The notes under the pieces: model-generated
Seen by the model: only the letters and a program-made list of their open reading frames with translations
What the model was told of the DNA's origin: nothing
The model's database searches: none
Assembly: GCA_016198755.1 (NCBI GenBank)
Contig: JACQIB010000005.1
Span: 48,931-112,930, forward strand
DNA length: 64,000 bases
Direction: 5' to 3'
Source of the DNA: Candidatus Aenigmatarchaeota archaeon
GTDB lineage: Archaea > Aenigmatarchaeota > Aenigmatarchaeia > Aenigmatarchaeales > JACQIB01
In this document: piece by piece, positions 3,099-29,012 of the stretch
Layout of the letters: each line of letters opens with the position of its first letter
Position numbering within the stretch: the stretch's first letter is position 1
Program-made: the position numbers and the translations under genes

Positions 3099-3117
3099 TG
3101 CTTCCTCAGGCACTCTA

Positions 3118-3384: not shown

Positions 3385-3388
3385 GATA

Positions 3389-3754: not shown

Positions 3755-3786
3755 GGATTTAGGTAGTATTTGATAGGAGATAAACC

Positions 3787-4217: not shown

Positions 4218-4222
4218 TTTAT

Positions 4223-7515: not shown

Positions 7516-7517
7516 AA

Positions 7518-9957: not shown

Positions 9958-9965
9958 TGAAACAC

Positions 9966-10328: not shown

Positions 10329-10329
10329 T

Positions 10330-12921: not shown

Positions 12922-14547
12922 ATGGGGCGCAAATCCAGCTTAACAACAGGTCAAAAGGCAAGCATAAGGCATTATGCTGAACAGGGTGAAGGACCTTCTG
13001 GTATCTCCTATTATACAGGCATTTCTCCGAGTAAGGTAAGTTATTATCTGAAATCACTTGAAAGAGAACAGGCTGGGAAAGGCAATGGAAATAGACAATA
13101 TAGAAATAGGAATGGACCTGCTCCGGTGGCTGAGACAGCTACAGAAGCTGGGAAACACGGACGCGGTCCAGGAAGAACAAGTAACTCTACAGTGTTTATG
13201 ATAGAGCAGATGGCTGCGCATGGCTATAATACTGAACAGATTTTAAATACACTGGGAGTCTCTGCTCATGTAGCAGAAAAATATTCTGATTTTGATGTTA
13301 GAGCCTATTTGGAAGCGAAAACTCCAACAGAAGCTGATGTGGAAAAGAAGGTAGATAGAAGGATATTGAGACAGGAAACAATAGAAAAAATAAAAGCCTT
13401 GGCAAGGGAGGGACGCACTATAGCCGGTATAGTGGAGGAAACTGGAGTGAGCAATAGATCTATATCCAAATATGCTGGCGCTGAACTGAATGAACGGTTG
13501 GGGGGAGAGAAGAGACAGGGAACAAGGCTGACTGCTGAAGAGAGGGAAACAATAATAGCTGCTATAGGAACAGGAAAATATTCTGGCCCATCTGAAGTTG
13601 GAAGTGAGTTTGATATTTCCTATCACACAGCAAATGCGCTCTGGAAATCAACGGGTAGAAAAGTAAGAGCTATTGGGGAAAAACCCGAAACAACCAGGGA
13701 GCGAGGCATTAGGCTGACAAAAGAGGAGGCAGCAACTATGGACATGGCTATATTGTCTGGAATATACACACACCCAGCAGATGTTGCAAGGGAGTTCCAT
13801 GTTTCTTACCAGACAGCGCGCATCCACTGGGAAACAGCTAGAGTAGCTGTTACAAAGCCAACTGTCTTGATAGAGCCTCCTAAACCAACGCCACCCAAAG
13901 ATTTGAAAATAGGGATTAGTGCTGCTAATGCTGAGCGGTTGGATACATTATGGGGACAGGGAATCAGGACAGTAAACGGGCTGCATGAGCGCACAGGGTT
14001 TAGTAGGCATATGGTTGGCAGGTATATGGAGGGGAGGGGATTGATATCAGAGAGGAGCAGGAGAGAAGAACAGATAACAAAAGATAACAGGCCTGCTATG
14101 CCACCAGTGATTCTGGAAGATCTTTCAGCTGCGATTATACTACATGCTGGGGAGAAGAAAATGGAAAAGGAAGCTGCAGAACAGACTGCGCAGCATGTTC
14201 TTAACTTTTTTGGCTACTCTAACAGGATTATAGATAATATACTGGAGCCTGAAGACAGGGACATTTTTTATATGTTAGAGGATGCTGGGATAGCTACAAC
14301 AGAAAGAGAGGAAACAACTTTATATGATGGGAGGGAATGGAGAATACACTATTGGGTGTTTAATCATGATAGGATAAAACAGATTTTGGCTCCTCTAAAA
14401 ACTGCAAAGAGAGAGAAAAGTCCTGAAGATGTGTATGAGGAGCTGGATGATGGGTTATGGCATGGTCATGGAGCAGAACCTGTTGAAGGGGTTCATGTTA
14501 CTAACGGGTTGGTAGCAGCTCAGGCTGGAGCAAGAGGCTCTGGTTAA
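12922..14547 (+). CDS. multi-HTH protein (about six helix-turn-helix-like modules plus a C-terminal globular domain)
   Basis: 541 aa. Repeated modules include GISYYTGISPSKVSYYLK, ILNTLGVSAHVAEKY, IVEETGVSNRSISKYAG, RLTAEERETIIAAIGTGKYSGPSEVGSEFDISYHTANALW, RLTKEEAATMDMAILSGIYTHPADVAREFHVSYQTARIHW and LHERTGFSRHMVGRYM. It lies on the opposite strand between the platform gene and the ATPase. Confidence 0.8.
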   Translation: MGRKSSLTTGQKASIRHYAEQGEGPSGISYYTGISPSKVSYYLKSLEREQAGKGNGNRQYRNRNGPAPVAETATEAGKHGRGPGRTSNSTVFMIEQMAAHGYNTEQILNTLGVSAHVAEKYSDFDVRAYLEAKTPTEADVEKKVDRRILRQETIEKIKALAREGRTIAGIVEETGVSNRSISKYAGAELNERLGGEKRQGTRLTAEERETIIAAIGTGKYSGPSEVGSEFDISYHTANALWKSTGRKVRAIGEKPETTRERGIRLTKEEAATMDMAILSGIYTHPADVAREFHVSYQTARIHWETARVAVTKPTVLIEPPKPTPPKDLKIGISAANAERLDTLWGQGIRTVNGLHERTGFSRHMVGRYMEGRGLISERSRREEQITKDNRPAMPPVILEDLSAAIILHAGEKKMEKEAAEQTAQHVLNFFGYSNRIIDNILEPEDRDIFYMLEDAGIATTEREETTLYDGREWRIHYWVFNHDRIKQILAPLKTAKREKSPEDVYEELDDGLWHGHGAEPVEGVHVTNGLVAAQAGARGSG

Positions 14548-16892
14548 GGAGCTTTCTTTGCCTGTTCTCTGAACCAGTTTTGCCATAAATTGAAAACCCT
14601 GTCAGCTTCTACAGAACCAACTTCCTGCCTTACTGTTTCTGAGAATCTGTGGAAAGCTTGGTTGCTTGCAACCACTGTAGGGGCTTCCAAAAGGGCTGGC
14701 TTTCCTGTGGCTCCTGCCACGCGCACAATCTCACTCAAAACTTTTGCCCTTAACTGTATATTGTCCCAGACAGAATCCCATCTGCCAGCCCATCCCGGCA
14801 CTCTTTTTGCTATATCGTTCAGTATTTGGCTTTCTCCTGTTAACAGAGTATCTGTTGGTTTTAAAGAATCTGAGCGGGAGTTATATTCTAACAGATTTAC
14901 AAATCCATGTTCTTCAGCAGGATCCTTTGTCCAGTGCTTTCTAACCTCAGTAACTTCTGTTACCCTTCTGAAACTTCTTAATCCATCAGCGCTGCGGATT
15001 TTGTTTGCAACAACAATTAAATCAGTGGCTTTAAAGCTTGTTGCAGGAACTCCTAAATCATTTACAACCCTGTCAAAAACCCCATAAGCGCTTTCCCCGT
15101 GTATAGTTCCGGCAACAACATTTGCTAAAGCTCCAATCCTCATTGCCTCGTACAGGGCTATTGCTTCTCTCGATCTTACCTCGCCAATAAACAGACAGGA
15201 ATCTCCCATTCTAAGAGCTGTTCTGATAGCCTCCTCAGCAGAAAGCTCAAGCTCAACTTTTGTTATAACACTTCTGGATTTCATTCTTTCAACATTATAG
15301 CTCAGCTTTCTCAGAGCCTCTATTGGAAGTTCATAAGTATCCTCAACTGTAATAATTCTGTAATAAGGGATAACCTGCAACATTAAGGAACCGAGTAGAG
15401 AAGTTTTTCCAGAGCCTCTGGTTCCTGCAACTAACAGTGTTCTCCCGTATGTTGTGAAAAACCAGAGCAAACCAGCTGTTAGTGGATCAAAGAAATGGTT
15501 TTGTATAAATAATGGAAATGTCCATGGTTCAAACCTGTGCCTTCTGAAAGCAAAAGCTAATCCTTCCGGTGAAACTCTTGGCCCAATAGCTGCTACTCTT
15601 GCAACACCTCCTGGAACAGATATTTCAGTGTCTAAAACAGGATTTGCCTCGTCTAATGGGCGGCCTGATAAAAGCTTAAATCTTGTTGACCATCTCTCCC
15701 CGTCCTCTTTTGTTGGAATAATATTTGTTTCACATTCATCAAATTCCTGATGTAGAATAAAAAGCGGTTGTTCACCCAATGGGCTGTTTATGTGTATATC
15801 CTGTATCTTTGAGTCTGCAAGCAAAAGCTCCAGTACCCCCAATCCTGTAGTATACCTAGTAAGTATTTGTGCTAACTCTTCAAGTTTTTCCTGTGAAAAG
15901 TTAAACCTGCGCAGGCTTGATATGTCCCTTAAAAGTTCTAGAGAAATAGAATGGAAAATATCCCTCATTTTCTCCTGATCTCTGACCTCAAACTCCTGCG
16001 GCTTTCTCTCCTCCAGAGCCTTCCTTGAATCATCCAGTACAGTATATTCTTCCTCACTCAAAACAAATTCGGGCGGAGTTATCTGGTAAATGGGCCTTAC
16101 TTTTCCAGGAACCTTAAAAATCTCAACTCTTGTTCCCCCGACATTATACTTGTCTATTATTTCCCCGCCTGCCGGAGGTTTTAACACAAACTTTGTAAGC
16201 ATAAAGTTAGGTCTTATTATTGGGTGGAACAGTTTTCTGTATACTGAACGATCCCCTATATGGTAGCCTGTTAAAAAGGGCTGGGCGTTTTTAATTAGGT
16301 CTGTTTTTCCCAAAATTGTTTTTATAGGCTCCAGAACAGCTGATAAATAATGTTCAAGCGCTTTTTTCTCCTTTTCATTTTCTGTTCTTTTCAAAATTAT
16401 TTTTATATGCCTTATTTCCCTTTCGATATCTAAATATCCTCCTATAGGATCCCCCCTCAACTGGACTGAAACAAGTGTATAAAGCCAGCTTTTCCATTTG
16501 TCGAAAAACTTGCCGGAAATGGATTTGTCCAGATTTTCATCTGATATAATTTTTTCCTCCATTACGATCCTGTTTATTGAAGCTGCAATCTGAACAAGCA
16601 TTTTTGTCTGCTCTGGACCATACTCATTTTCCCTCGTTTCTGCCATTACAACGCTTGTTACTTTTCTCTCTGAAAGCAGCTTATCTACTACCCGTGCCAT
16701 GCAAACATCAAAGTCTTCTATGCTGGAGCCAAACAATGCTCCGGAGCAGTTTATCTTCATCCTCCCATCCTTCAGTTCTGTTACCTCATAAACCAAGCCA
16801 AACTCCCCCCTTCTTTTATATATATAGGACAATAAAACTATATTTATCTTTACAGATAAAGGTTTTCCAAATGCCAGAAGTGAATCTTTCAA
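14544..16892 (-). CDS. type II/IV secretion-family assembly ATPase (FlaI/PilB/VirB11-like)
   Basis: Walker A is VAGTRGSGKTSLLGS. The Walker B/Asp-box region is ALRMGDSCLFIGEVRSREA, followed by the His-box-like VVAGTIHGES. The track start at 16892 is TTG and overlaps the divergent + gene. In-frame alternatives are TTG at 16796 and ATG at 16760, so the true start is uncertain. Confidence 0.9.
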   Translation of the reverse strand: MKDSLLAFGKPLSVKINIVLLSYIYKRRGEFGLVYEVTELKDGRMKINCSGALFGSSIEDFDVCMARVVDKLLSERKVTSVVMAETRENEYGPEQTKMLVQIAASINRIVMEEKIISDENLDKSISGKFFDKWKSWLYTLVSVQLRGDPIGGYLDIEREIRHIKIILKRTENEKEKKALEHYLSAVLEPIKTILGKTDLIKNAQPFLTGYHIGDRSVYRKLFHPIIRPNFMLTKFVLKPPAGGEIIDKYNVGGTRVEIFKVPGKVRPIYQITPPEFVLSEEEYTVLDDSRKALEERKPQEFEVRDQEKMRDIFHSISLELLRDISSLRRFNFSQEKLEELAQILTRYTTGLGVLELLLADSKIQDIHINSPLGEQPLFILHQEFDECETNIIPTKEDGERWSTRFKLLSGRPLDEANPVLDTEISVPGGVARVAAIGPRVSPEGLAFAFRRHRFEPWTFPLFIQNHFFDPLTAGLLWFFTTYGRTLLVAGTRGSGKTSLLGSLMLQVIPYYRIITVEDTYELPIEALRKLSYNVERMKSRSVITKVELELSAEEAIRTALRMGDSCLFIGEVRSREAIALYEAMRIGALANVVAGTIHGESAYGVFDRVVNDLGVPATSFKATDLIVVANKIRSADGLRSFRRVTEVTEVRKHWTKDPAEEHGFVNLLEYNSRSDSLKPTDTLLTGESQILNDIAKRVPGWAGRWDSVWDNIQLRAKVLSEIVRVAGATGKPALLEAPTVVASNQAFHRFSETVRQEVGSVEADRVFNLWQNWFREQAKKAP
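16814..16846. promoter_or_regulatory. putative bidirectional promoter (two TATA-like boxes)
   Basis: ttttatatatata (16814-16826) lies about 20-25 nt upstream of the in-frame TTG at 16796 of the ATPase on the minus strand. tatattta (16839-16846) lies 25-32 nt upstream of the ATG at 16871 on the plus strand. Confidence 0.35.
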
Positions 16893-17212
16893 CAGTGCTG
16901 AACGAGGCTTTTAGGAGGCTTAATGAAGCTTCCAGAAGATTGAGAGCTTCTGAAGAGAGGTATGATGTTCTTGAAACAAGGCTGGAAGGGCTGCAAAATA
17001 CAATGCTTAAAATCAGCGATGAGCTTTCAGGGAAGATAGAGAAAAGTTCAGGGGAACAGAAGGATTTTGAAGCAAGGTTAGTTAGGATAGAAGCAGATCT
17101 TACAAAAATTGGGCAGGCTATGGAAAAGAGCGCAAAATCCTCTGATTTGGAGGAGTTAAAGAATCTTGTGGAGCTTTATTCCCCGTTTAAAGAAAAGAGA
17201 AAGAGTGATTGA
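16871..17212 (+). CDS. small coiled-coil protein, unknown function
   Basis: The track ORF 16577..17212 is mostly antisense to the ATPase. The ATG at 16871 gives 113 aa (MPEVNLSTVLNEAFRRLNEASRRLRASEERYDVLETRLEGLQN...) with heptad-like E/K/L-rich composition. Confidence 0.6.
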   Translation: MPEVNLSTVLNEAFRRLNEASRRLRASEERYDVLETRLEGLQNTMLKISDELSGKIEKSSGEQKDFEARLVRIEADLTKIGQAMEKSAKSSDLEELKNLVELYSPFKEKRKSD

Positions 17213-17213
17213 A

Positions 17214-17861
17214 ATGGCAGAGAAAAGAGTTTTCATACCAATTGATCTGGCTAAAAAACTGGCTGGGGAAGGGAAAAATGAGGGGGATATTATTGAGGAA
17301 TTAAAGAAAAGGGGATTTACACCCTTCCAGATTGACAATGCTCTGAAAGCAGCGCTGAAAGATGCTGTTGTTCCAAAAAGGCCTTATGTTTCAACCTTAC
17401 CCCCGCCTCAGGAAAGTATTCCAATGGCTGAATCTGAAACACCTGTGAACGTTGCAGGCGTTGAAAAGCCTTCTGAAGGCTATCCTCCAGAGAAGATTTT
17501 AATTCCTGAAAAGCTCCAGCCATTAGCTCCACCTGGGGAAAGGCCTCCTGCAATGGACGAGACAAAGCCCAGCGCGGGCGAAGTAACAGTAGAGGAACTT
17601 GTAGAGTCTGTTGTTGAGGAGAGATGGCAGGGAATGGCTGAAAAAATCGGTGCTTTTTTGAACAAGGAAGAATCTATAGCTTCTGAGTTAAAGTCCCTTA
17701 GGGAAAAAATAGAGGATGTTTCATCAGCAGAAAAGGCAACAGATTCTACTCTTTCACAGCAGATAGACCAGTTTTCCTCAGACCATGGGAAACTAGAAAC
17801 CCGCCTAAAAGCTCTTGAAAAGGCTTTTAAAGAATTTGCAGAATGGTCAAGGAAGAAATAA
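17214..17861 (+). CDS. protein with small N-terminal helical domain, Pro-rich linker and C-terminal coiled coil
   Basis: The ATG at 17214 lies 1 nt after the previous stop. Sequence: MAEKRVFIPIDLAKKLAGEGKNEGDIIEELKKRGFTPFQIDNALKAALKD, then a P-rich stretch (PPPQESIP...PPGERPPAMDE), then a coiled coil (LKSLREKIEDVSSAEK...LKALEKAFKEF). Confidence 0.7.
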   Translation: MAEKRVFIPIDLAKKLAGEGKNEGDIIEELKKRGFTPFQIDNALKAALKDAVVPKRPYVSTLPPPQESIPMAESETPVNVAGVEKPSEGYPPEKILIPEKLQPLAPPGERPPAMDETKPSAGEVTVEELVESVVEERWQGMAEKIGAFLNKEESIASELKSLREKIEDVSSAEKATDSTLSQQIDQFSSDHGKLETRLKALEKAFKEFAEWSRKK

Positions 17862-18374
17862 CTACTGACGCTGCTGTGGGGGCCCTTCCTGTTTCTCCTT
17901 TCCTTCCATTACCATCCATATTATAGCAACTATTATTACAATGAAGAAGAATAATGTTACATTTGCCTGCCCAGAAATATCTATTTGAGGGAATCCAATA
18001 AGCTGTAGCCCGCCTGCTCCAACGAAAACAAGCACTGCTATTATCACAAGAGCTGCAGCAAAATATACTTCGTACTTTTTAATCAGCGTCCCGCCCTTTC
18101 CAATTCCAGCTATTTCTAAAAATACCAACAAAATGAGTATTCCCAATACAACCATTACAAGAGCTGAAGATAGTTTTGAAAGGAAGCTAATTATTTCTGT
18201 GGGAGCTGAAAAAATAACCAAAAACCCTACAACTATAGAGATTATTGCACGTGCAGCATTTGATTGCGGAAGCTTTACTTGATGTAAAACTCCGTAAACT
18301 ATTGCAAAGCTCAAAAGCCAGAGCAGTATCTCTGGAAACCCTAAATTTTGTAATGTTGATAAAAATTCAGCCAT
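17862..18374 (-). CDS. membrane protein, paralog 1 of a tandem triplet
   Basis: The ATG at 18374 (track start is GTG at 18383) has GGTGG upstream. Sequence: MAEFLSTLQNLGFPEILLWLLSFAIVYGVLHQVKLPQSNAARAIISIVVGFLVIFSAP.... 4-5 TM segments. Its stop abuts the stop of the convergent + gene with no gap. Confidence 0.75.
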   Translation of the reverse strand: MAEFLSTLQNLGFPEILLWLLSFAIVYGVLHQVKLPQSNAARAIISIVVGFLVIFSAPTEIISFLSKLSSALVMVVLGILILLVFLEIAGIGKGGTLIKKYEVYFAAALVIIAVLVFVGAGGLQLIGFPQIDISGQANVTLFFFIVIIVAIIWMVMEGKEKQEGPPQQRQ

Positions 18375-18386
18375 TTTTTCCACCTA

Positions 18387-18899
18387 TTATTTTTTATCCC
18401 CGCCTGGCATACCTTCTTTGTACATAAACCAGAAGGCAACCGCGATTATTATTGCGAAAATTACTATCGCAACAAGTGTATCAGATATTTCTGGAACAGA
18501 GATATTTATAACACTCAACCCGCCTGCTCCAATGAAAACAGAGAGAAGAATAAGCAAAATAATGCCTCCGAAGAACTTTGGATGTGCCATGAAAATATGG
18601 GTTCCGCCTGTTTTAACCTGTCCTATCTCAAGGAAGATTACAGCAACTAACAGTCCAACAGCAATCAATACTCCAGCTACCACAAGGTTCTGGAGGAAAG
18701 CTACAGCTGGGGAAGCTGCTGATGCTAAAAGAACAAGGAAAGCAGCTGAAAGTGCAATTACCCCTTTTGCAGTGTTTGACTGGGGTATTTTTGCATGGTG
18801 TAACATCCCATAAACAACAGCTAAAGTAAGCAGCCAGAGTAAAACCAAAGGGGCTCCAGCATCCCTCAAAATCACAATCATATCTTCAATTCCTGCCAT
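18387..18899 (-). CDS. membrane protein, paralog 2 of a tandem triplet
   Basis: ATG at 18899. MAGIEDMIVILRDAGAPLVLLWLLTLAVVYGMLHHAKIPQSNTAKGVIALSAAFLVLLASA... is colinear with paralog 1. Confidence 0.75.
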   Translation of the reverse strand: MAGIEDMIVILRDAGAPLVLLWLLTLAVVYGMLHHAKIPQSNTAKGVIALSAAFLVLLASAASPAVAFLQNLVVAGVLIAVGLLVAVIFLEIGQVKTGGTHIFMAHPKFFGGIILLILLSVFIGAGGLSVINISVPEISDTLVAIVIFAIIIAVAFWFMYKEGMPGGDKK

Positions 18900-18937
18900 T
18901 TTAACCAATCCTATTTTGCCTCCTATTTATTTAAAGC

Positions 18938-19414
18938 TCAGCCTGCCTGCTTGGGATCGTACTTATAGGCTATCCAAAAGATGAAAAATATTAAGACCAG
19001 CCCTATAATAAAGGCCAAGTTCTGCGAACCTATACTGGGTATGTTTGGAACAGCTGTTATTCCAACCATAAGGAAAGCAATGAAAGCCAACCCTACAACA
19101 ATGAGGGTGAAAGGCTCAACCTTTTCTTTCCCAGTCTTATCCTTTCCTATCCCCAAAGCTTTTGCAAGGAAAATTATAAAGAAAAATACAACAAAAAACC
19201 ATGCTAAACCCGGTAGGATTTGAAAGAAGGTTGTTGTAAAAGCACTGTTAGTAGCAGCAAAGAGAGCTATTCCCAAAGCTACAACAGCATTAACAGGCTT
19301 GCTTTTTAAAACTCCAGCAGTCTGCAGAATCCCGAAAACAATTGCAAAAACAAGGACAAAAGGCAGGTAAAAGGTTTGGTCTAATAAATTAAATGGTAAG
19401 CTGAATTCTGCCAT
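18938..19414 (-). CDS. membrane protein, paralog 3 of a tandem triplet
   Basis: ATG at 19414. MAEFSLPFNLLDQTFYLPFVLVFAIVFGILQTAGVLKSKPVNAVVALGIALFAATNSA... is a more diverged copy. Confidence 0.7.
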   Translation of the reverse strand: MAEFSLPFNLLDQTFYLPFVLVFAIVFGILQTAGVLKSKPVNAVVALGIALFAATNSAFTTTFFQILPGLAWFFVVFFFIIFLAKALGIGKDKTGKEKVEPFTLIVVGLAFIAFLMVGITAVPNIPSIGSQNLAFIIGLVLIFFIFWIAYKYDPKQAG

Positions 19415-19422
19415 ATAAACCA

Positions 19423-20055
19423 CTAAACAAATTCCTTTGACCTTTCTAGTTCGCGTATCTTAGCTTCTAAATCAGCTTTCCTGAGCCTCCATGCATTTCT
19501 GGACTCTTCTAATGCCCTTCTCTCATCTCCGGCTTTAGTGGCCGAATAGGCTATATTCAACTCTCTCATCTTCTCATCACATACAATTATATCACTCTTC
19601 AGCCTGTCAATAACCTTTCCCTGCTCCCTTCTAGACCATATTTTTCCACCCGCTTTTTCCAGCAACATGCCTCTGGCCGCAGTTGTTGAAGGGTGTAATA
19701 TCTTAGGTAGCATAAAAATAACCAAGCTGGTTCCAACAGTTACGAGCATCCAGAACTGGGCTGCCGAAGCTATAAATGCGTACCAACCATTCCAGATAAC
19801 AAAAATGTAAAATGCAAAAGACATTAAGAGTCCCAGACCTTTATGACCGGTTCCTATTCTACTATATACTATAAAGAGCCACAAAACTATGACTATATGT
19901 GGGAAGAAAAGCAAATTCAATAAATCTGATGTCATATCTCCGGTTGGCTGAATCTTTAGAATCCCGAAAATTAACTCTGCAATATTGACTTGAGACAGGT
20001 CTGGAATGTTAATATTGGGGAGTGTTCCGGCCCCTATCTGAAAGAGTGGAAACAT
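19423..20055 (-). CDS. membrane protein with cytoplasmic C-terminal coiled coil
   Basis: 210 aa with about 3 TM segments (FFPHIVIVLWLFIVY, GLLMSFAFYIFVIW, FWMLVTVGTSLVIFML), then ...RRALEESRNAWRLRKADLEAKIRELERSKEFV. Confidence 0.75.
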   Translation of the reverse strand: MFPLFQIGAGTLPNINIPDLSQVNIAELIFGILKIQPTGDMTSDLLNLLFFPHIVIVLWLFIVYSRIGTGHKGLGLLMSFAFYIFVIWNGWYAFIASAAQFWMLVTVGTSLVIFMLPKILHPSTTAARGMLLEKAGGKIWSRREQGKVIDRLKSDIIVCDEKMRELNIAYSATKAGDERRALEESRNAWRLRKADLEAKIRELERSKEFV

Positions 20056-20085
20056 AAGAATTATTCATGAGCTATACTTATAAGC

Positions 20086-21528
20086 TTACTCTTTCTTTTC
20101 ATCATCAACTGGTGTTGATGTAACCTCTATTGGCTTATCTTCTGCTTTATCTGGAAGAATATATGTGAAAGAATCTGCGGCACCCTTTCCACCCTGAACT
20201 TTTGTCTTGCCCCTGAAAAATTTCCCAATTGGAAGAGAACCAGGTTTTAGCAACTCGGCTCTTTTCTGTATATAGGCAACAACAGTGGCATCTGTAAGCT
20301 CCCCGGCTTTTCTCGCCTCGTCCACATCCCTTCTTGCCTGATCAAGTGTTAATCTCAACCCTGCAACATCGCGACCAACTTCATCTAACATACCCTGCTT
20401 TACAGTAGCATCATTTTCTGCAGCCTCTGCCCTCTTTCTCAGCTCTTCAACCCCTATTAACAGGGTTTCCCTGTCTGAAGGTGCTGCCTGAGCTTGCTGT
20501 ACTATTTTATCTGCCTCTGCTTTCACTCTTTCTGCTGCAGCTGCCCTTTCCTCTGCAGTTTTCATGGCAGCCTCTAAAACTTCCCTCCTCCGCTGCATAT
20601 CACCCTCCTGATCAACAATTCTTGCTTCCCTCAGATTGAGCGCATCTGCTATTGCTTTGTATTTTACAGAATTTTCATCTTCAACAGCCTTGAGACCAGC
20701 CTTTTCTTTCTCCAACGCCAGCCTTTGCTGTTCTATGTCTTTTTCTTTCCTGCTAACCATATCAAGTTCAGCTGCAAGAGCAGCAGTTCCAAGCTGCCTC
20801 TCCTTTTCTCTATCTTGATATGCTGTCTCTTCTGTCCTTAGCTTGTCATCCCTTTCTTTCAAACTATCTTCAAGCTCTCTGTATTGAACCCAGCGCTGCC
20901 CCAGTTCCTTTGAACTTGCATCTATATCTGTTCTCTTGGCTTCTAGAGCTCTTGAAGTAGACTCAAATGTTTCTTTTGCCTGCTTAAGTTCTTCTTTCTC
21001 CTTATCAATCCTAGCTCTTTCTTCATCTATTTGTGCCTTTTCCCCAGCCAGTTCATTGTCTTTCTCTTTCATGCGCGCTGAGGTCTCTGTATTAAACCTT
21101 ATGTGCTCCTGAAGTTCTGACATTTGTGAATCATACCTGACTTCCCTTCCTGTTAGATTTTCCTCCCTTGCTCTCAAATCCCTCTCAACACTTCTCAGAT
21201 GATTCTGGGCTGCCTTTATCTCATCTTCTCTGGCTTTAACTCCATACCTGCTGTTCTTTAGAACATCTGCTTCCTCTCTGAGTGCAGCAGCATATTCCCT
21301 CAAAAACCAGGTTGTTGCATCCCTTTCTAAATTATTTCTTGTTTCTTGGGTACCTATGGGATCTGCAGTCCTGTAGTGAGAAATAATATCAGCAAACTGC
21401 CTATATGCCTTATCACTTAAGCCCTCTACTTCCGGAAGTCCAAATTTTGATGTTATATGAGTGTAAAGGCTTTGAGCTGCTTTTATGTCCTTTTCTGCTC
21501 CGGCTGCCCTTGGATCATCATTTATCAT
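20086..21528 (-). CDS. long coiled-coil protein with about 85-aa N-terminal globular module
   Basis: 480 aa. Residues ~100-400 are continuous E/K/R/A-rich heptad-like sequence. The N-terminal module (AAQSLYTHITSKFGLPE...ERDATTWFLREY) resembles that of the next gene. Confidence 0.8.
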   Translation of the reverse strand: MINDDPRAAGAEKDIKAAQSLYTHITSKFGLPEVEGLSDKAYRQFADIISHYRTADPIGTQETRNNLERDATTWFLREYAAALREEADVLKNSRYGVKAREDEIKAAQNHLRSVERDLRAREENLTGREVRYDSQMSELQEHIRFNTETSARMKEKDNELAGEKAQIDEERARIDKEKEELKQAKETFESTSRALEAKRTDIDASSKELGQRWVQYRELEDSLKERDDKLRTEETAYQDREKERQLGTAALAAELDMVSRKEKDIEQQRLALEKEKAGLKAVEDENSVKYKAIADALNLREARIVDQEGDMQRRREVLEAAMKTAEERAAAAERVKAEADKIVQQAQAAPSDRETLLIGVEELRKRAEAAENDATVKQGMLDEVGRDVAGLRLTLDQARRDVDEARKAGELTDATVVAYIQKRAELLKPGSLPIGKFFRGKTKVQGGKGAADSFTYILPDKAEDKPIEVTSTPVDDEKKE

Positions 21529-21551
21529 ATTTTATCACTGAATATTAAAAC

Positions 21552-23150
21552 TTAAATACTACCCCATCTTGCATATGGATCATCATCTGTTGGATTAATC
21601 TCTCCTGGTGTTCCACCGTTTCTTTTATGAGGCACTACAGCTGGTTCTACTTCCAACGCTGGCTCCTGTTCTAAAGGCGGAGCTGATGGTGGCTCAGCGA
21701 AAGATACTGGTGGATATGGAACCGATCTTGGTCTAAATGGAACTGGTCCTGGTCTCCATGCTGGAGGTGGCTGTATAGGCCGTGAACCCTCTTCTACTTG
21801 TCCAAATGAAGCAGGCAATGGCTCCTCTCTTCCAGCTCGTTCCCCTTCTCCATATGCCCATGGTGGAGGTGGTGGAACAGGAGATTGTACTGGTTCATCA
21901 TACTGAGATGGTGAATATGGTGGTGGCTCTCGAGGAGGAGCGAGTAATGGAATTGACTGTACTGGAGATTTTGGAGTCTCCGGAGGCGGAGGAATTGGTG
22001 ATTTGCGTCGTGATAAATAGTATCCTAAACCAGCTCTCATTCTCCCTGCCCCGACTCCCATTTTATATAGGCCATCACTTGCATACCTTCTAGCAGACCT
22101 TCTTGCTGATTTTGCAGGTTTATTTGCTTCTTTTACACTATTCGCTAAGCTCTTTATCCCATCTAAAGTGTCAATCTCTTTGTTAGCCCATTCTTTTATG
22201 CGTTCCAATCTATTATTGTCTCCATAAAAAATAACACGATATCCAGGAGGAGAATTTTTGGAGATATCCATCGGAACTTTTCCTTTGAGACTCGAAATTG
22301 TTGTTACTGCCCTTTCATCAATTGCAGTGCTATTACGTATCAGGTGATTTACTGCAGCCTCTACTTGGGCTTTGCTGCCGTAAAATCTTCCTCTCATAAC
22401 TCTGCCTGTTTTAAGAGGCTTTGTAAGATCTGTTTTTTTCATTAAATATTCAGCAGCTCCGGATTTTGGTATTAGAATAGCTGACCCGTCACTTCCGTAG
22501 TATGCGTTTGCTTCCCTACCTGGTTGAAATTCATAAGTAACTTTTTCTTTCTTAGGCTTTTGTGTTTTTCCAGGTTTAATTACTATAACAACCTCATCAT
22601 CCGCATTTCCGGATTGAGGAATACTGTTACCTGACTCCCGTATATTAAATACCCCACCAATTGGAGTATAAGGCGATTCCCCTCTGAACCAACTTCTTGG
22701 TTTTCCGGTAGTAACTGGTGCTTGTCCGAAAGAAGATGGAACTGTTATGGGCGGAACTCCAGTAACCGGTTCATCTGAACCAGATGCACCGCTGGGTGAA
22801 AGATACCCAGGTCCTTTAACATCCGGAGTAGAAGAAGGTGGTGACGCTGTAGAACTTCCCCCAGCCCTCGATTTGGCTGGATTATAAAAAGTATCCATAA
22901 ACCAGTTGTATGCTGCATCAGCCTCTTCCCTTGAAATTTCTTTGAATCTTCCAGGATCTCCCATTACACGTGTGTCGACCCTTCTTACAGTAGATGATAA
23001 TACAGCTAAAACGTCTTTCTCAGGTATTCCGTATTCTTTAACATCGCTCTCAAGAACTCCTGCCCTCCTTAATATGGATTTGTATAGAGTTCTGGCTCCC
23101 TGCATATCTGGACTTTCTGGAGGCGGTGTTGGTTTTTTGAATATTCCCAT
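21552..23150 (-). CDS. modular protein: shared N-terminal module, central module, Pro-rich C-terminus
   Basis: 532 aa. The N-terminus has GARTLYKSILRRAGVLE...EADAAYNWFMDTFY. The centre has PKSGAAEYLMKKTD...SLKGKVPMD. The C-terminal ~130 aa are about one third Pro (PPPPETPKSP...PPPPPWAYGE...PPPAWRPGPVPFRP). Confidence 0.8.
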   Translation of the reverse strand: MGIFKKPTPPPESPDMQGARTLYKSILRRAGVLESDVKEYGIPEKDVLAVLSSTVRRVDTRVMGDPGRFKEISREEADAAYNWFMDTFYNPAKSRAGGSSTASPPSSTPDVKGPGYLSPSGASGSDEPVTGVPPITVPSSFGQAPVTTGKPRSWFRGESPYTPIGGVFNIRESGNSIPQSGNADDEVVIVIKPGKTQKPKKEKVTYEFQPGREANAYYGSDGSAILIPKSGAAEYLMKKTDLTKPLKTGRVMRGRFYGSKAQVEAAVNHLIRNSTAIDERAVTTISSLKGKVPMDISKNSPPGYRVIFYGDNNRLERIKEWANKEIDTLDGIKSLANSVKEANKPAKSARRSARRYASDGLYKMGVGAGRMRAGLGYYLSRRKSPIPPPPETPKSPVQSIPLLAPPREPPPYSPSQYDEPVQSPVPPPPPWAYGEGERAGREEPLPASFGQVEEGSRPIQPPPAWRPGPVPFRPRSVPYPPVSFAEPPSAPPLEQEPALEVEPAVVPHKRNGGTPGEINPTDDDPYARWGSI

Positions 23151-23181
23151 ATTTTATCACTGAATAGTAAACCTTAAATAC

Positions 23182-24369
23182 CTATGGTTTCCCTCCTTCG
23201 TCATTATAAATAGTTTCCCAGTCAATTTCTGGTTTGGCATTCTTTTGAGGTGCGGACTTTTTTCTCCTGCCAAACAAAGTCCACTTTCTTTTGGGAGGTC
23301 CTTCTACTACTGTTATGCCTGATTGAGGAACTGGAACTGATACGGGATTAGAAGGTATTGTAGGTCCTACAAGAGCTGTTAAACAACTTTGATAAAATTG
23401 TTCTGTCGGTCCCCTCAATTCAACATTATCACCCATACCAGCTAGGTCTCCTTTTGCCTTCAAAAGAGCATTCATAATATTTCTTTGTTTATCAGTTACC
23501 CACAAAACAGCAGACTCCCCATCCCCATCTAAAGGAACTACACCTTTTATTTTAGAAACCATAACTGAACCGGGTTTGTCTAAACTATATCTACCTTTCC
23601 TGAGTGTATCCAAAACACCGTCTGCATCTGTTTGTGTCATATTAATTAATCTTAATTGTTTTCCGGTATTTTGCCTTCTTAGATATTCCACTGCACCAGG
23701 TGTTAAATAAAGTTTAACTTCACCACCATCAAACCTTCTTATTTTTATTCCCGGCAGGCCTTCAGGAACCTCTTCATTATAGCCTACTCCGCCTTCTCCT
23801 GCAGATTCAACTCTTATTTGAATTGTTTTTACATTACTTTCTGCTCCATGTGAAGATGTTTCTGAACCTCCTTTAGTATCCTCATGAAATTCAGATGGAA
23901 GATTGTCGATCATGACAGTGTTCCAGTAAGCAGCAAATGATTTTGCATCTTCTCCACTAACCTCGTAATTGCCATTTCCAACATCTTTTACTGTTAATTT
24001 GAATCTCTTACCTAAACCTTCGCTATCAAAAACCTCTTTTCTTATCTTATCTAGATAGAATACACTTGAATCAGTACGTTGTTTACTGCCCGGGAGCTCT
24101 GCTACACTTTGTCCAGTATCTTCGTAAACAGGATCAAGATCAGAATTAGTTGCCTTTTTCCATGCATCTCTTATTCTTTCAGCATCTTGACCTTCTACTA
24201 AGTATCCAGTATTATCCTTTGTGGGGGTTATTGTAATATCTAGGATTCTATCCCAAGCTCTTCTTTTGATTTCTGTAAGATATGTTGCGTTTATAACATA
24301 CCCCTTTACATTCCTGTTTTCTGGACTCTGAGCTTTTGGTTCTTTAGAATCTTCTGCTGCACCTTCCAT
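23182..24369 (-). CDS. modular protein with internal duplication and the central module shared with the 532-aa protein
   Basis: 395 aa. Internal repeat: YLTEIKRRAWDRILDITITPTKDNTGYLVEGQDAERIRDAWKKA versus YLDKIRKEVFDSEGLGKRFKLTVKDVGNGNYEVSGEDAKSFAAYWNTV. Later TPGAVEYLRRQNTGK...KIKGVVPLD matches the neighbouring protein. Confidence 0.8.
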   Translation of the reverse strand: MEGAAEDSKEPKAQSPENRNVKGYVINATYLTEIKRRAWDRILDITITPTKDNTGYLVEGQDAERIRDAWKKATNSDLDPVYEDTGQSVAELPGSKQRTDSSVFYLDKIRKEVFDSEGLGKRFKLTVKDVGNGNYEVSGEDAKSFAAYWNTVMIDNLPSEFHEDTKGGSETSSHGAESNVKTIQIRVESAGEGGVGYNEEVPEGLPGIKIRRFDGGEVKLYLTPGAVEYLRRQNTGKQLRLINMTQTDADGVLDTLRKGRYSLDKPGSVMVSKIKGVVPLDGDGESAVLWVTDKQRNIMNALLKAKGDLAGMGDNVELRGPTEQFYQSCLTALVGPTIPSNPVSVPVPQSGITVVEGPPKRKWTLFGRRKKSAPQKNAKPEIDWETIYNDEGGKP

Positions 24370-24372
24370 ATT

Positions 24373-25068
24373 TTATCCCCCAAATCTTTTTGCACGTGCA
24401 TCAGTGTCACTCAGTATTCTTTCTATTCTCCTATCAAGAGCTACGTCTACACTTGCACCTGCATATGCAACCATTCCCCTGTAAAGTGGACTCTGAGCTA
24501 TCTTTAATCCTTCCATTACACCGGCGAATGTAGCGCCATCATATCCCCTATATTCTACTTGTGCATTTCCAACAATTACATTATGTGGTGTTCCAGGAGG
24601 AAATGCCTGATAAAAGCCTATACCTTCCTGTAATCCAGCAATACGCTTACCTGCATCCTCTTTTACTCTAATTAGAGCTTGTTTCTTTACTTCTTTTAAT
24701 GTATCTGGTTTTTCTATGTTTCTACTCGCTATAAGTGCCGCATCAGATGATGCAGTCAACTCAGACGCAGGCTTAATTCCCTGTGTAGTAGCTGTATAAA
24801 TTGCATCTGCTTTCTGATAACCTCCACCGAAAGCTATGCCTCTAAAAAAGCGGTATACATCTCTCAAACCTATTACACCTAGCAATGGTCCAATTCCAAG
24901 ATCCTCCCAATCCATCCTTTCTGCAATTGTTAATGTTGCATCGGGCTGCCTCTCCTTTCTTCCTCCGGCAGTTAACACTGTCTGCTCTGCTCCTAGAATT
25001 ACATCTATAGGATCATTCTTATCGGGAGGAAGTGACTCCGGTACAAGAACTGTTGTTGTTGGTGCCAT
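24373..25068 (-). CDS. hypothetical protein
   Basis: 231 aa with clean ATG and AGTGATAAAAT upstream. Its stop is embedded in the GGGGGATAAAATATG start region of the next gene. No motif recognised. Confidence 0.7.
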   Translation of the reverse strand: MAPTTTVLVPESLPPDKNDPIDVILGAEQTVLTAGGRKERQPDATLTIAERMDWEDLGIGPLLGVIGLRDVYRFFRGIAFGGGYQKADAIYTATTQGIKPASELTASSDAALIASRNIEKPDTLKEVKKQALIRVKEDAGKRIAGLQEGIGFYQAFPPGTPHNVIVGNAQVEYRGYDGATFAGVMEGLKIAQSPLYRGMVAYAGASVDVALDRRIERILSDTDARAKRFGG

Positions 25069-25164
25069 ATTTTATCACTCATTATTTGGCAGCAAAACAA
25101 TAAATCCTGAGTGTGAAATTGTTTTACTACCTAATAGTAGTATGTATTAACTAGTATATAAAGC

Positions 25165-26367
25165 CTACTGTTCGGGTGTTCCACCATTTCCCTTTTGCAA
25201 CTCTTCCATCATTCTGCGCCTTATTTTGCTTAGTTCCACATCATCTGAATCAGATGGCTCTACTGGAGGGCTGGATTTTACTTTCTCTGCTACTCTCGCG
25301 GTTTCTGAGTCCGGAGACCTTTCACCAAAACCTAAATCCGCCAATACTCTCTTTTTGTTTTCATCGTCTTGAGATGGCTCAACAGGAACACCACTTTTTA
25401 TTTCTTCTAAAACTCTATCTGTTTCTGGATCCATAGCCCTTCCGCTTGGTACTCCAGTACCCTGGCCTGCTTCTGGTTTATCATTCCGCACAGGTGGAAC
25501 ATATCCTGGAACTGGTTTATCAGAAGGCGGCTCGTATGTTGTAGAGACATGAGCTCCTGCAGCATAATCACCTAAACCTGGAGTTTTAGCAGGTTCATCA
25601 CTCTCAAACTCTGCTCCACAACATCCGCACCTAGCATCAGCAGCGCCAACATCTGCACCACACGATGGGCACTCGAAAGCTTCTAATTTTTCGTCTTCTC
25701 CTTTTGGAGAATCTTCTCCATCTCCGCGATCAAGTCTTGTGAGTCTTGGACTACCGAAACCTTTATCCTTGGAGATTTTTAACCTGTCTAAAGCAACCCC
25801 TACAAGCATCTGGGCTTTTCTTAGATTATTTTCATAATGCAGATCTCCACTGCCCTTCCTCTCTGCTGCCTGTAAATGAAGCATTGCTGCAGTCACATCA
25901 GCCCCTACCTTCTCTGCAGCTTCTATATACCCCCTAACTCTTTCCATCTTAGGATCTAAAATAAGAACGCGACTTGACCTGTATGGAGGTGCGGGTGGAA
26001 CTGGCGCCCTTCTTGGCGGTGATGGAGCAGGTCGGGAAGATGAAGGATTAGGATTATGACCTGCCGGAGGAGTTGGAATTCTCCTTGGAGGTTCATAACC
26101 AGAAGATTCTACTGTAGCTGGAGGAAGCGTTATAGGAAGTGCAGTGGGTTTCCTGCTTATTGCTATAGTCAGCCTATCCTGAATATCTTCTATTCTTGAA
26201 TCAACTCCAAATTTGCCTTTATAGGGAGTTAAAGCATTCAGAGCAAGTTGGTAAGCTTGTGCAGCTGAACCATAATCATGTAACCTTGCTAATCTGTCTC
26301 CTGCTCTTACGTAAGCATCTGCTCCAGCAACTTCCTTTCTCTTTTTAGTAATAAGGAGTAATTTCAT
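25165..26367 (-). CDS. protein with TPR-like N-terminus, Pro-rich linker, 4-Cys zinc ribbon and tandem acidic C-terminal repeats
   Basis: 400 aa. Features: AYVRAGDRLARLHDYGSAAQAYQLALNAL; PPAGHNPNPSSSRPAPSPPRRAPVPPAPP; CPSCGADVGAADARCGCCGAEF; repeat ETDRVLEEIKSGVPVEPSQDDE / ETARVAEKVKSSPPVEPSDSDD. Confidence 0.8.
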   Translation of the reverse strand: MKLLLITKKRKEVAGADAYVRAGDRLARLHDYGSAAQAYQLALNALTPYKGKFGVDSRIEDIQDRLTIAISRKPTALPITLPPATVESSGYEPPRRIPTPPAGHNPNPSSSRPAPSPPRRAPVPPAPPYRSSRVLILDPKMERVRGYIEAAEKVGADVTAAMLHLQAAERKGSGDLHYENNLRKAQMLVGVALDRLKISKDKGFGSPRLTRLDRGDGEDSPKGEDEKLEAFECPSCGADVGAADARCGCCGAEFESDEPAKTPGLGDYAAGAHVSTTYEPPSDKPVPGYVPPVRNDKPEAGQGTGVPSGRAMDPETDRVLEEIKSGVPVEPSQDDENKKRVLADLGFGERSPDSETARVAEKVKSSPPVEPSDSDDVELSKIRRRMMEELQKGNGGTPEQ

Positions 26368-26400
26368 TCTTATTACTGTATGGTAGTTAATATTTAAAGC

Positions 26401-26652
26401 TTACTGTTCTGGGCGCTGGAAGACTCCAAGCTGTGTGCAAATCTCCAGTATAGCCCAAGCCCAGATTACTGCCTCAAAGGCTCTAACTAAGTCACCGGAG
26501 CCTAGAAAGTGCTTTGAGTCGGAAATATAGGCTTTCATGTTTTCCATCATTTCTTCTCCTTTTTCGTCTGAGAGTTGTATTTGGTCTATAAATGGCTCTA
26601 TTTTATCCAGCCACTTTTCAACTTCTTTCTCTGTCAGTTTCAACTTGTCCAT
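26401..26652 (-). CDS. small helical protein, possibly DUF357 family
   Basis: 83 aa. ...AYISDSKHFLGSGDLVRAFEAVIWAWAILEICTQLG fits my recollection of the DUF357 pattern. Not verified. Confidence 0.4.
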   Translation of the reverse strand: MDKLKLTEKEVEKWLDKIEPFIDQIQLSDEKGEEMMENMKAYISDSKHFLGSGDLVRAFEAVIWAWAILEICTQLGVFQRPEQ

Positions 26653-26703: not shown

Positions 26704-27477
26704 TTATTGGCTGCGGGTGGCCTTGAGTTTTTCCAATATAGATTTTTTGACAGACTTGAACTCCGGCACCATTGGTATAAGTGGGTCTAGTTCAGAGTTC
26801 CAGATAGCCTCTTTAAGGTTCAGGTGCTTTTCAAATTTACCTGGGCTCCAGCTTTCCCTATAATATTCCAGTTTTTTATCTGTCAATTCCTTATCAAAGG
26901 AAACTCCTTTCTCAAGCAGGAACCAAAGATCATAAACATCCCTGGCTTTTGTTCGGCTCATTATAGCCCTGACCTTTTCAGCCAGTATTTCCCTTTCGTC
27001 CATTACTAGGACATCAAACTCCGGTAGTTCCTCAATAAATCTCCCAACGGTTTTAATTAGTGGTTTCAAGGTTACATTTTCCCTAAAGCTAAAGTCTATG
27101 ATAAAATTGCAAATGCTGTGCCTTACACCAAGATATAACGGTCCAGTTATTCTAAGAATAATTTTTAAACCGTTTTCATACTCCTTTGTCTCAATTTCGT
27201 ACTCTATACCAAATCTTTTCAGTCCAGACTCTAATTTTTTAGTGTCTACCTTGCCTACGCATGTAAAATCCAAATCTTCTGAAAACCTGTTCAGACCATA
27301 GCATTTTTTTAAGGCAGTGCCACCCTTAAAAATAAGGGTGTTTCCATACTCTTGGTAGAGAATAAACAATATTATATTCTGGATATAGTCCTTTTCTGCT
27401 TGGCCTAGATTTTTTAGACCTGCAACTTTTGCATAGTTTTTTAATTCTTCCTTTTGTATCATATCTTTAGCCTCCAT
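26704..27477 (-). CDS. abiEii: nucleotidyltransferase toxin, AbiEii/DUF1814 family
   Basis: 257 aa. LIFKGGTALKKCYGLNRFSEDLDFT is the characteristic NTase motif. 19-nt overlap with the upstream AbiEi-like gene. Confidence 0.8.
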   Translation of the reverse strand: MEAKDMIQKEELKNYAKVAGLKNLGQAEKDYIQNIILFILYQEYGNTLIFKGGTALKKCYGLNRFSEDLDFTCVGKVDTKKLESGLKRFGIEYEIETKEYENGLKIILRITGPLYLGVRHSICNFIIDFSFRENVTLKPLIKTVGRFIEELPEFDVLVMDEREILAEKVRAIMSRTKARDVYDLWFLLEKGVSFDKELTDKKLEYYRESWSPGKFEKHLNLKEAIWNSELDPLIPMVPEFKSVKKSILEKLKATRSQ

Positions 27478-28145
27478 TTACTATATGTTTTTTCCCATTT
27501 CTTTGAGAATGGATTTAAAACGACATAGTTTTTGTCTAAGATAAAGTTGTGAGATATATCCACGCTCTTAATAGTTTCCAGTAAATAACCGACTCGCTTA
27601 ATAACATTGTTATTGCCTGTGATCTGGAGGTATTTAACAACTTTATCCTCATCTATTTTTGCGTTCTCAAATATTTTTATTATTTCGTCAAAATTTCCAC
27701 ATTCCTTTGGTCTCAGAAAACAGTCTATTAAAAGCTTTTCATCCTCTGCAATAAAAATATCCCCCTCGTCCGTTCTTATTTTTTTATAGCCAAAAACTGG
27801 CTTAATGGAAACAAATTTTATATCGTACCCTTCAAACTTTATTGGGACGGCTCTTCTTGTGGTCGCGACCTGAACAGTGTTAAGAATCTGTTCTGTGTAA
27901 CCAAGAAAGTAGGATGCTGACCAGAACGAGATATAGGAAGGATAAACTATGTTGCTAGCTATCAAGAAAATGCTGTCCTTTGTGGTGTAAGCGTTTCTTT
28001 TTATCTTTTTTACTAACCCTCTTTGTTTTAACCTGTTCAAAATCAACTTTGCATATATTCCCTTACAATACCCAATACGCTCTATATCTTGTATCTTAAA
28101 GACCGCTTTAGCTCTAAGCTTATCTAAAAGTTCTATCGCTTTCAT
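27459..28145 (-). CDS. abiEi: AbiEi-family antitoxin / transcriptional regulator (N-terminal wHTH)
   Basis: 228 aa. Motifs: ...LILNRLKQRGLVKKIKRNAYT...YPSYISFWSASYFLGYTEQ...IFIAEDEKLLIDCF. It precedes and overlaps the AbiEii gene. Palindromic operators lie in its promoter. Confidence 0.7.
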   Translation of the reverse strand: MKAIELLDKLRAKAVFKIQDIERIGYCKGIYAKLILNRLKQRGLVKKIKRNAYTTKDSIFLIASNIVYPSYISFWSASYFLGYTEQILNTVQVATTRRAVPIKFEGYDIKFVSIKPVFGYKKIRTDEGDIFIAEDEKLLIDCFLRPKECGNFDEIIKIFENAKIDEDKVVKYLQITGNNNVIKRVGYLLETIKSVDISHNFILDKNYVVLNPFSKKWEKTYSKWRLKI

Positions 28146-28286: not shown

Positions 28287-29012
28287 CTATTTGCTGTAAG
28301 TTTCCAGAGCTTCCTTTTCCTTAAAGTGGAGCTTTCCTGGCAAAATTAGAACTGCAGGGTATGGGAACCTTTTCTCCAGCAGTTCTTTTACAGGCGCGTA
28401 AACTATAGTTTGCTCTGGGGTTCCTAAAGCTGCTGCAGCAACAAATTTTTCTGCTGGCTTTGTTATTTTGGCTTTTAACAAAAACTTTAAAGCATCCACA
28501 GGGCCCATGTATAGGTTTACTTCAGAGTCTAAGTCTAAAAGCAATAGTGTATGTAAACCGAGCTTTTTGTTGCCTTCTATTGTTTCTTTCACAGCAGTTA
28601 GTTGGCCTGTAAATGGAATAGTAGCTGTGCGTCCGAACTTGTAGAGTTGGAGACCTGTTTCAGCTATTACAGAAAAAATGCTTACAGAATGGAAAACCTT
28701 ACAGGGAACAGACTGCTTTTTGCACTCAAGCAAAAGCTCCATATGGGTTGTGGCTGATAGAGGGTCTCCGATTATCAGAACAGCAATATTTTTCTCCTTT
28801 GCTCTTTCAACTAGCAAGACAGAATCATCCTCCAAACCCTTCCTTTTAAGCAAAACAGGTTTTTTCCCCATTGCCTTTTCTATATCAGCTGCAGAACCTT
28901 TCCAGAGGGAAGTATATTGTTCTATATACAGCTCATCAGCTGCTTTTCCAGCTTCTATTCCACCAACTGTTAAGTCTGCTGGGGAAAGGCCTATTCCAAT
29001 AAGGTAGAGCAT
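28287..29012 (-). CDS. dph5: diphthine synthase
   Basis: 241 aa. It starts MLYLIGIGLSPADLTVGGIEA..., has the length of a tetrapyrrole-methylase-fold protein, and includes ...LIIGDPLSATTH. Confidence 0.85.
   Translation of the reverse strand: MLYLIGIGLSPADLTVGGIEAGKAADELYIEQYTSLWKGSAADIEKAMGKKPVLLKRKGLEDDSVLLVERAKEKNIAVLIIGDPLSATTHMELLLECKKQSVPCKVFHSVSIFSVIAETGLQLYKFGRTATIPFTGQLTAVKETIEGNKKLGLHTLLLLDLDSEVNLYMGPVDALKFLLKAKITKPAEKFVAAAALGTPEQTIVYAPVKELLEKRFPYPAVLILPGKLHFKEKEALETYSK

Follow-up and report, generated by a model that had tools for sequence, protein, structure and literature searches.

Twelve genes at 16871-26652 of the window (the whole stretch analysed here, 64,000 nt of contig JACQIB010000005.1 from a metagenome-assembled genome (MAG) of Candidatus Aenigmatarchaeota, a DPANN archaeon) had been predicted to form a single undescribed system. 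The genes do not hold together as one unit; the best-supported reading is that they comprise a conserved accessory module (g7-g12), which lies beside a type-IV-filament-like motor locus, a variable slot (g2-g6) and a neighbouring gene (g1), and not one new system. DPANN archaea need physical contact with their hosts, and the contact machinery is largely unknown. A type IV pilus (T4P)-like motor with coiled-coil partners has been flagged once before as candidate contact machinery.

The motor genes lie outside the interval. A T2SSE/FlaI/CpaF-family ATPase of 737-750 amino acids (aa), the anchor gene of the comparisons below (14544-16796, minus strand; Pfam T2SSE, E = 1.3e-17), starts about 75 nt from g12 in divergent orientation, and its best solved relatives are afGspE (PDB 2OAP, 7e-31), CpaF (3e-20) and FlaI (9e-17). 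Orthologues with 45-67% identity are present in 80 DPANN loci. A T2SSF/TadC-type platform protein of 767 aa (10500-12803, minus strand; Pfam T2SSF, E = 8.7e-9, 35.9 bits against a cut-off of 25.2) adjoins the ATPase in 67 loci. The proteins encoded at 573-9707 and four tiny open reading frames (ORFs) at 9745-10500 have a short polar N-terminus followed by a pilin-like hydrophobic helix, and none of them matches a pilin family in Pfam or NCBIfam. The combination of a T2SSE ATPase, a T2SSF platform and proteins with pilin-like N-termini identifies the neighbour as a type-IV-filament-like locus.

The association of the module with this locus is conserved in most DPANN species. Scanning one genome per species for the ATPase yielded the 80 loci, and every ORF in them was searched with iterated hidden Markov models (HMMs) made from the window proteins; presence was counted in the 58 loci that extend 4 kb or more upstream of the ATPase. 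Nearly all of the 80 loci are labelled as DPANN (Aenigmat-, Woese-, Pace-, Nano- and Micrarchaeota) or as unassigned "archaeon", and the exceptions (three Methanosarcinales and one "bacterium") were taken as mislabels. G12 is present in 55 of the 58 loci and G11 in 54. A transmembrane (TM) protein family that includes g8, g9 and g10 is present in 50, with three copies in 33 loci, four in 10 and two in 7. G7 (17/58) and the DUF357 gene (12/58) both belong to Aenigmatarchaeota-type loci. The typical order is (Dph-DUF357-slot-G7)-TMx3-4, followed by G11 and G12 on the opposite strand and then by the ATPase and platform, Dph being the diphthine synthase gene. A reverse scan from the TM homologues recovered the same order on 3/3 long contigs and in the metagenome loci L090-L096. 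The link to the adjoining pilus-like locus that was part of the original prediction is supported, with G12, G11 and the TM paralogues beside the ATPase and platform in about 50 of the 58 DPANN species.

Much else in that prediction was confirmed by closer analysis. The ORF map has the described layout of ten minus-strand genes (26652 down to 17862), spaced by -1 to 96 nt, and two convergent plus-strand genes (16871-17212 and 17214-17861) that end exactly at the start of the g10 stop codon, so that the stops of g11 and g10 abut. Strong Shine-Dalgarno (SD)-like leaders precede genes of the interval. The tentative DUF357 protein at the head (g1, 83 aa, 26401-26652, minus strand) is a member of Pfam PF04010 (E = 9e-14, 51.7 bits against a gathering threshold of 29.4); it follows the diphthine synthase gene in Aenigmatarchaeota-type loci only, and it is a conserved housekeeping neighbour that forms the left border of the slot and is probably not a component. 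The lack of recognised families also stands, as g2-g10 have nothing but coiled-coil noise below threshold in Pfam, NCBIfam, PHROGs and PADLOC, and the same four scans gave no real family for any protein from g2 to g12. Pro-rich stretches are present as claimed (in g2, g5 and g11), and g2-g6 have no TM segment, no signal-peptide-like and no pilin-like N-terminus. The claimed absence of an ATPase is correct inside the interval, but the T2SSE-family gene begins just beyond its edge. The claimed sharing of modules was found for g4 and g5 only. Rfam and tRNA scans of the window gave nothing relevant, the sole tRNA being at 43214. No population variation is to be had from four Logan contigs, which match the window at 100% identity.

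The three tandem TM proteins are g8 (161 aa, 18938-19423), g9 (173 aa, 18387-18908) and g10 (173 aa, 17862-18383), all on the minus strand and each with five hydrophobic helices. The g9 and g10 proteins are clear paralogues (40% identity, E = 4e-29). The g8 protein is a more divergent member (25% identity to g10, E = 3e-5), and iterated HMMs place all three, as predicted, in one family of 168 ORFs in 55 loci. An AlphaFold2 (AF2) model of g10 consists of five long helices (mean predicted local distance difference test (pLDDT) score 81). Some homologues have an N-terminal signal-peptide-like extension that looks cleavable, and the N-terminus of the family, including g10, is therefore placed outside. 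The predicted TM protein with a coiled coil is G7 (210 aa, 19423-20055, minus strand), which lies at the right edge of the variable region and has three TM helices and a charged, cytoplasmic coiled-coil tail. Its alignment (A7) contains invariant P52, Y83, Y92 and F114 and a nearly invariant H53. Profile comparison (hhalign) detected no relation between G7 and the TM family, or between either of these and the platform, and a PDB profile search with the G7 alignment gave generic coiled coils and non-significant ATP-synthase-b-like matches.

On the plus strand, G11 (215 aa, 17214-17861) combines a C-terminal coiled coil with a conserved helical domain at the N-terminus (about 45 aa) and a variable Pro/Gln-rich linker between them (alignment A3), and G12 (113 aa, 16871-17212), the gene divergent from the ATPase, is part of a family of coiled coils of 100-130 aa with an RRLRxLEER motif (alignment A2). 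The G12 profile aligns with the G11 C-terminus at 81% probability (hhalign), and the two may be distantly related. In PDB profile searches, G11 matches coiled coils that include the reovirus sigma-1 protein (6GAO, E = 1.8e-5), and 6GAO is the best match of G12 (E = 4.1e-5). Hamm et al. (2024, Nat Commun 15:6449; PMC11291902) described a pair of T4P-like loci, conserved among cluster-2 DPANN (Aenigmarchaeota included), that encode CpaF, TadC and coiled-coil proteins (CCPs) resembling sigma-1 (6GAO); they presented proteomic evidence that the loci are expressed in Ca. Nanohaloarchaeum antarcticus and proposed a role in host interaction. The locus in the window resembles these in its CpaF/FlaI-type ATPase and TadC-type platform with adjacent coiled-coil proteins and in its distribution over the same phyla (Aenigmarchaeota, Woese-, Pace- and Nanoarchaeota). 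Because of this locus context and the common 6GAO match, reproduced here as a weak match of coiled-coil type, G11 and G12 are very probably the published CCPs. In contrast, the terms "transmembrane" and "membrane protein" are absent from the main text of that paper, which was taken to mean that the 5-TM array and G7 are not covered. The literature library that was searched contained no further paper on this locus. The novelty claimed in the original prediction is accordingly reduced: the conserved core is partly published, whereas no description seems to exist of the TM array, of G7 or of the hypervariable slot.

The slot between DUF357 and G7 behaves very differently from its surroundings. 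The closest comparison is a congener contig (L087) with the same gene order, which was reached through the protein P0027, the only match apart from a self fragment in an exhaustive HMMER search of 1.84e9 representatives with g4. Between the window and L087, the flanking genes are highly conserved at the protein level (DUF357, 96%; Dph, 85%; g8, 92%; g9, 98%; g10, 94-95%; G11, 91%; G12, 94%; ATPase, 96%), with synonymous divergence (dS, Nei-Gojobori method) of 0.3-0.8 and ratios of nonsynonymous to synonymous divergence (dN/dS) of 0.03-0.13 (0.03 for DUF357, 0.06 for g8 and 0.05 for g9). The dN/dS of 0.05-0.11 across g8-g12 is the mark of purifying selection on the conserved part. The slot genes are far more divergent. 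Identity to L087 is 48-56% for g2 (dS 0.44, dN/dS 0.75), 25% for the positional counterpart of g3, 30-35% for the N-terminal and 63-70% for the C-terminal part of g4, and 33-55% for g5, which can be aligned in patches only (dN/dS about 0.4). The g6 protein is 28% identical to its 490-aa positional counterpart by Smith-Waterman alignment and has no blastp match there. Where measurable, dN/dS in the slot is 0.3-0.75, with about 0.4-0.46 for the C-terminal part of g4 and for g5. Values of dS are saturated or high in g3, the N-terminal part of g4, g6 and G7, which may be partly an alignment effect. G7 (59-60% identity) is well aligned and has a dS of 1.9, which suggests deeper allelic divergence or recombination. 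DNA similarity to L087 is lost between about 19527 and 26391, save for three short patches; within G7 it is lost between about 19527 and 19865.

Slots at this position are a general feature of Aenigmatarchaeota-type loci, and every such locus has an occupied one at the same site. L087 has counterparts at each slot position, the one of g4 being broken by a scaffold gap, and one extra ATPase_2/DUF234 gene. The other loci have one to five unrelated ORFs on the same strand, mostly acidic or coiled-coil; these slot proteins have no match to g2-g6 by blastp or phmmer. Conservation of gene order outside this genome, the lack of which the original prediction had named as an argument against a system, thus fails for the g2-g6 half, with counterparts in L087 only. 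Two architectures recur: one combines TPR-like hairpins with Pro-rich segments and a zinc ribbon, and the other is a long coiled coil to which a small C-terminal domain is attached; long coiled-coil slot proteins are found in L029, L082, L090, L092 and L096. The contig of a sister species (L085) ends before the slot. The GC content at third codon positions (GC3) is 0.22-0.26 in g2-g5 and 0.34 in g6, and 0.31-0.40 in the non-slot genes measured, apart from g1 and G7. Slot GC3 is about 0.1-0.15 below that of the flanks in three genomes that differ greatly in overall GC content (window, 20086-26367; L087, 7350-13116; L090, 2492-6389). These data are best explained if g2-g6 are a lineage-specific, near species-specific and fast-evolving cassette, which evolves under weak constraint or diversifying pressure. 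The five genes are co-oriented and probably co-transcribed.

The slot genes are all on the minus strand. The first, g2 (400 aa, 25165-26367), encodes a TPR/MIT-like helical hairpin, a Pro-rich linker, a CPxC...CxxC zinc ribbon and an acidic tail, and its zinc-ribbon motif (FECPxCGAxVxxxDxKCxxCGAEFE) is conserved in L087 and recurs in slot proteins of about 1000 aa in L090 and L092. The g3 gene (231 aa, 24373-25068) encodes an orphan soluble protein; a word-indexed search of 5.8e9 protein clusters returned only the protein itself (NCBI HY362_03840). The g4 protein (395 aa, 23182-24369) has two N-terminal repeats of about 60 aa and a module of about 90 aa in common with g5, and an AF2 model from its two-sequence alignment was unusable (pLDDT 39). 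The module shared by g4 and g5 spans about 89 aa (blastp E = 0.004; Smith-Waterman z = 4.1, with 0/200 shuffles reaching the score), and g5 (532 aa, 21552-23150) adds a helical N-terminus and a long Pro-rich C-terminus (14% Pro). Similarities of g6 to g5, g4 and g2 do not rise above shuffles. The g6 protein (480 aa, 20086-21528) is a long coiled coil with sub-threshold SMC/HmpF/JetC-type matches only. No adhesin, lectin or enzyme domain was found in g2-g6 with Pfam and NCBIfam. In front of g6 (21526-21559) and g5 (23148-23181) stands an almost identical leader of 34 nt (SD-like GTGAT, followed by AAAAT and ATG), 21 nt of which also precede g3 (25066-25086). Its copy at g5 is among the few stretches of DNA kept between the window and L087.

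The explanation that we favour, if only by a modest balance of probability, is that the interval represents the accessory side of a DPANN-wide type-IV-filament-like machine and carries a fast-evolving, lineage-specific cassette. From protein architecture and gene order we infer a scaffold function for the module. On the cytoplasmic side, the ATPase hexamer would be bound or held in position by G11 and G12, and a membrane collar or tether made up of the TM paralogues and G7 would surround the platform. The slot proteins, encoded by closely packed genes in one orientation, could be lineage-specific cytoplasmic scaffold or adaptor parts, the low-complexity architecture of which would tolerate very fast sequence change. 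In the crenarchaeal archaellum (FlaX/FlaH ring) and in bacterial type IVa pili (PilM/N/O), TM-anchored and coiled-coil proteins encoded beside the motor ATPase scaffold it at the membrane. The proposed collar or tether would be analogous to these in role and not in sequence, as neither sequences nor folds showed any similarity. In bacteria, variable islands of pilin or glycosylation genes occur next to conserved pilus genes. The slot resembles these islands in being hypervariable, in lying between pilus-locus genes of high conservation and in its signs of deep allelic divergence, but its proteins are soluble, lack signal peptides and are neither pilins nor glycosyltransferases. The locus shares the core of ATPase, platform and pilin-like proteins, together with subsystem-specific cytoplasmic accessory proteins, with archaeal type IV filament systems (Makarova, Koonin & Albers 2016, PMC4858521; Sivabalasarma & Albers 2026, preprint). 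The former authors noted a clade-4F ATPase without cognate pilins in nanoarchaea and a coiled-coil accessory protein (arCOG07564) in subclade 4F loci. However, g2-g12 match no Pfam or NCBIfam pilus or archaellum accessory family (FlaH, FlaX, FlaCDE, FlaF/G, PilMNO or TadZ, at E <= 0.05-0.1).

Several observations weigh against this explanation. The PDB matches of G11 and G12 are weak and to generic coiled coils only, and their identity with the published CCPs comes from locus context and the common 6GAO match, not from direct alignment with the Ca. Nanohaloarchaeum antarcticus CCPs NAR1_01690 and NAR1_03220. Foldseek found no PDB match for the TM-protein model at E <= 0.001. Physical contacts among the module proteins are predictions from gene order and architecture. 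A cytoplasmic scaffold offers no obvious reason for 25% identity between congeners, and the high dS of g3, the N-terminal part of g4, g6 and G7, together with low GC3, could reflect recombination with divergent alleles or foreign DNA. The TM family is absent near the ATPase in 8 of the 58 loci. Finally, a conserved ORF of about 95 aa, PRC-barrel-like by eye, immediately precedes the TM array in 15 loci of Woese/Pacearchaeota (L042-L056 and others). PRC-barrel proteins function in archaeal division, and the gene could hint at a division-related role.

The last two observations also speak for the view that G7, the TM paralogues and G11/G12 form membrane and coiled-coil machinery that serves a different envelope process, for instance division or the shaping of membranes, and is merely syntenic with the pilus motor. 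We regard this as rather unlikely. G11 and G12 do have weak matches to EzrA, arcadin-4 and SMC-like coiled coils, but these are coiled-coil noise far under the cut-offs, and the locus contains no FtsZ, SepF or ESCRT genes. In addition, the divergent adjacency of G12/G11 and the ATPase in about 95% of species from several DPANN phyla is hard to explain without a functional link.

The extreme divergence of the slot relative to its flanks, with dN/dS up to 0.75 and high dS in the center of the island, and its lineage-specific content are also consistent with an arms race or host-specificity switches. The slot genes would then encode host-interaction cargo or bridge parts, exposed on or delivered into the host by the filament-like machine without class III signal peptides. 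Raised nonsynonymous diversity has been found in T4P components and surface proteins of Nanoarchaeota (PMC6142677), and Hamm et al. (PMC11291902) reported, besides their proposal of host interaction, that what enters the host is either the whole nanohaloarchaeal cell or its cytoplasmic content. However, g2-g6 lack a signal peptide, a TM segment, a pilin-like N-terminus and any adhesin, lectin or enzyme domain, all measurable dN/dS values are below 1, and coiled-coil and Pro-rich proteins evolve fast from relaxed constraint alone; cargo thus seems unlikely. An extension of this idea, in which the conserved module is a cell-cell contact or transfer apparatus, the slot proteins are presented to or passed into the host despite lacking signal peptides, and the slot is a host-specificity determinant in Aenigmatarchaeota, appears improbable.

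A foreign origin of the slot, left behind by an integrated virus, a plasmid or some other cassette that was gained horizontally and has nothing to do with the pilus locus, would account for the orphan status of g2-g6, the lower GC3 of g2-g5 and the saturated dS of g3, the N-terminal part of g4 and g6, and it fits with the AbiE pairs next door and the extra ATPase_2/DUF234 gene in the L087 slot. The genes found do not bear it out. No integrase, capsid, terminase or replication gene is present in the slot, PHROGs gave no functional match above noise for the interval genes, and IMG/VR scans with g2, g3, g4 and g5 recovered no relatives. The repeat search revealed no convincing att-like flanking direct repeats, and no tRNA flanks the slot. 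With PADLOC, g2-g8 and g11 had only JetC coiled-coil noise (E about 1e-3), the AbiEi/AbiEii matches being neighbour genes at 26704-28145, so that the original view that known defense or mobile-element explanations do not fit was upheld. Moreover, the gene order is the same in L087, the same site is occupied in every Aenigmatarchaeota-type locus, and the GC3 shift is also seen in the slot genes of L087 and L090, so that the shift looks like a trait of the slot itself and not the sign of a recent import. We therefore rate a foreign cassette as very unlikely. That g2-g6 are decaying or non-functional ORFs between conserved genes is scarcely credible, in spite of their very low conservation and lack of domain matches, given the long intact ORFs (231-532 aa) with counterparts at each L087 position, dN/dS of 0.3-0.75 rather than about 1, conserved SD leaders and tight operon-like spacing.

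Three things are added to the earlier description of the motor locus: it is almost always accompanied by an array of uncharacterized 5-TM paralogues without a Pfam family or a PDB fold match, Aenigmatarchaeota-type loci also carry the TM and coiled-coil protein G7, and the slot genes outpace their neighbours in divergence by an order of magnitude. The TM array, G7 and the slot proteins are concrete targets for study in cultivated DPANN, and the slot is a possible marker of host-range evolution. Should the slot encode no more than scaffold under relaxed constraint, the outcome would be an annotation of dark-matter genes that is useful but ordinary.

Additional variation was seen around the module and the motor. 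A second variable position lies between the TM array and G11 in L029, L082, L093, L095, L096 and L085/L086; it contains large coiled-coil proteins of up to 914 aa and, in the sister species (L085/L086), an Asp_protease_2 gene pair. On the other side of g1, two AbiEi/AbiEii toxin-antitoxin pairs (26704-28145 and 29042-30249) flank the diphthine synthase gene (28287-29012). The first pair sits between Dph and DUF357, which are directly adjacent in most relatives.

Within the motor locus, a multi-helix-turn-helix (HTH) protein with a C-terminal DUF6015 domain (E = 1e-26; 12922-14547, plus strand) is wedged between the ATPase and platform genes, which are adjacent in other DPANN loci; the sister contig L085 has two DUF6015 genes between them. 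This protein may be a lineage-specific regulator of the locus. The four tiny ORFs at 9745-10500 (80, 70, 52 and 56 aa, minus strand) encode one hydrophobic helix each and lie between the platform gene and that of a large downstream protein with CARDB domains. Similar small genes are present in L085, and the four are candidate minimal pilins. Proteins of 729, 449 and 607 aa (4223-9707, minus strand), which are among those with pilin-like N-termini, apparently have a common Cys-rich N-terminal region (by eye), suggesting that they are paralogous adhesin-like pilins. ATPase orthologues of 1251-1258 aa are present in L079, L082, L083 and L099/L100. The ATPase HMM match is split by about 500 aa in L079, the L082 and L083 proteins have the same length, and the L099/L100 orthologue has Pfam matches to Intein_splicing and LAGLIDADG_3, which suggests that some Aenigmatarchaeota have an intein in their motor ATPase.

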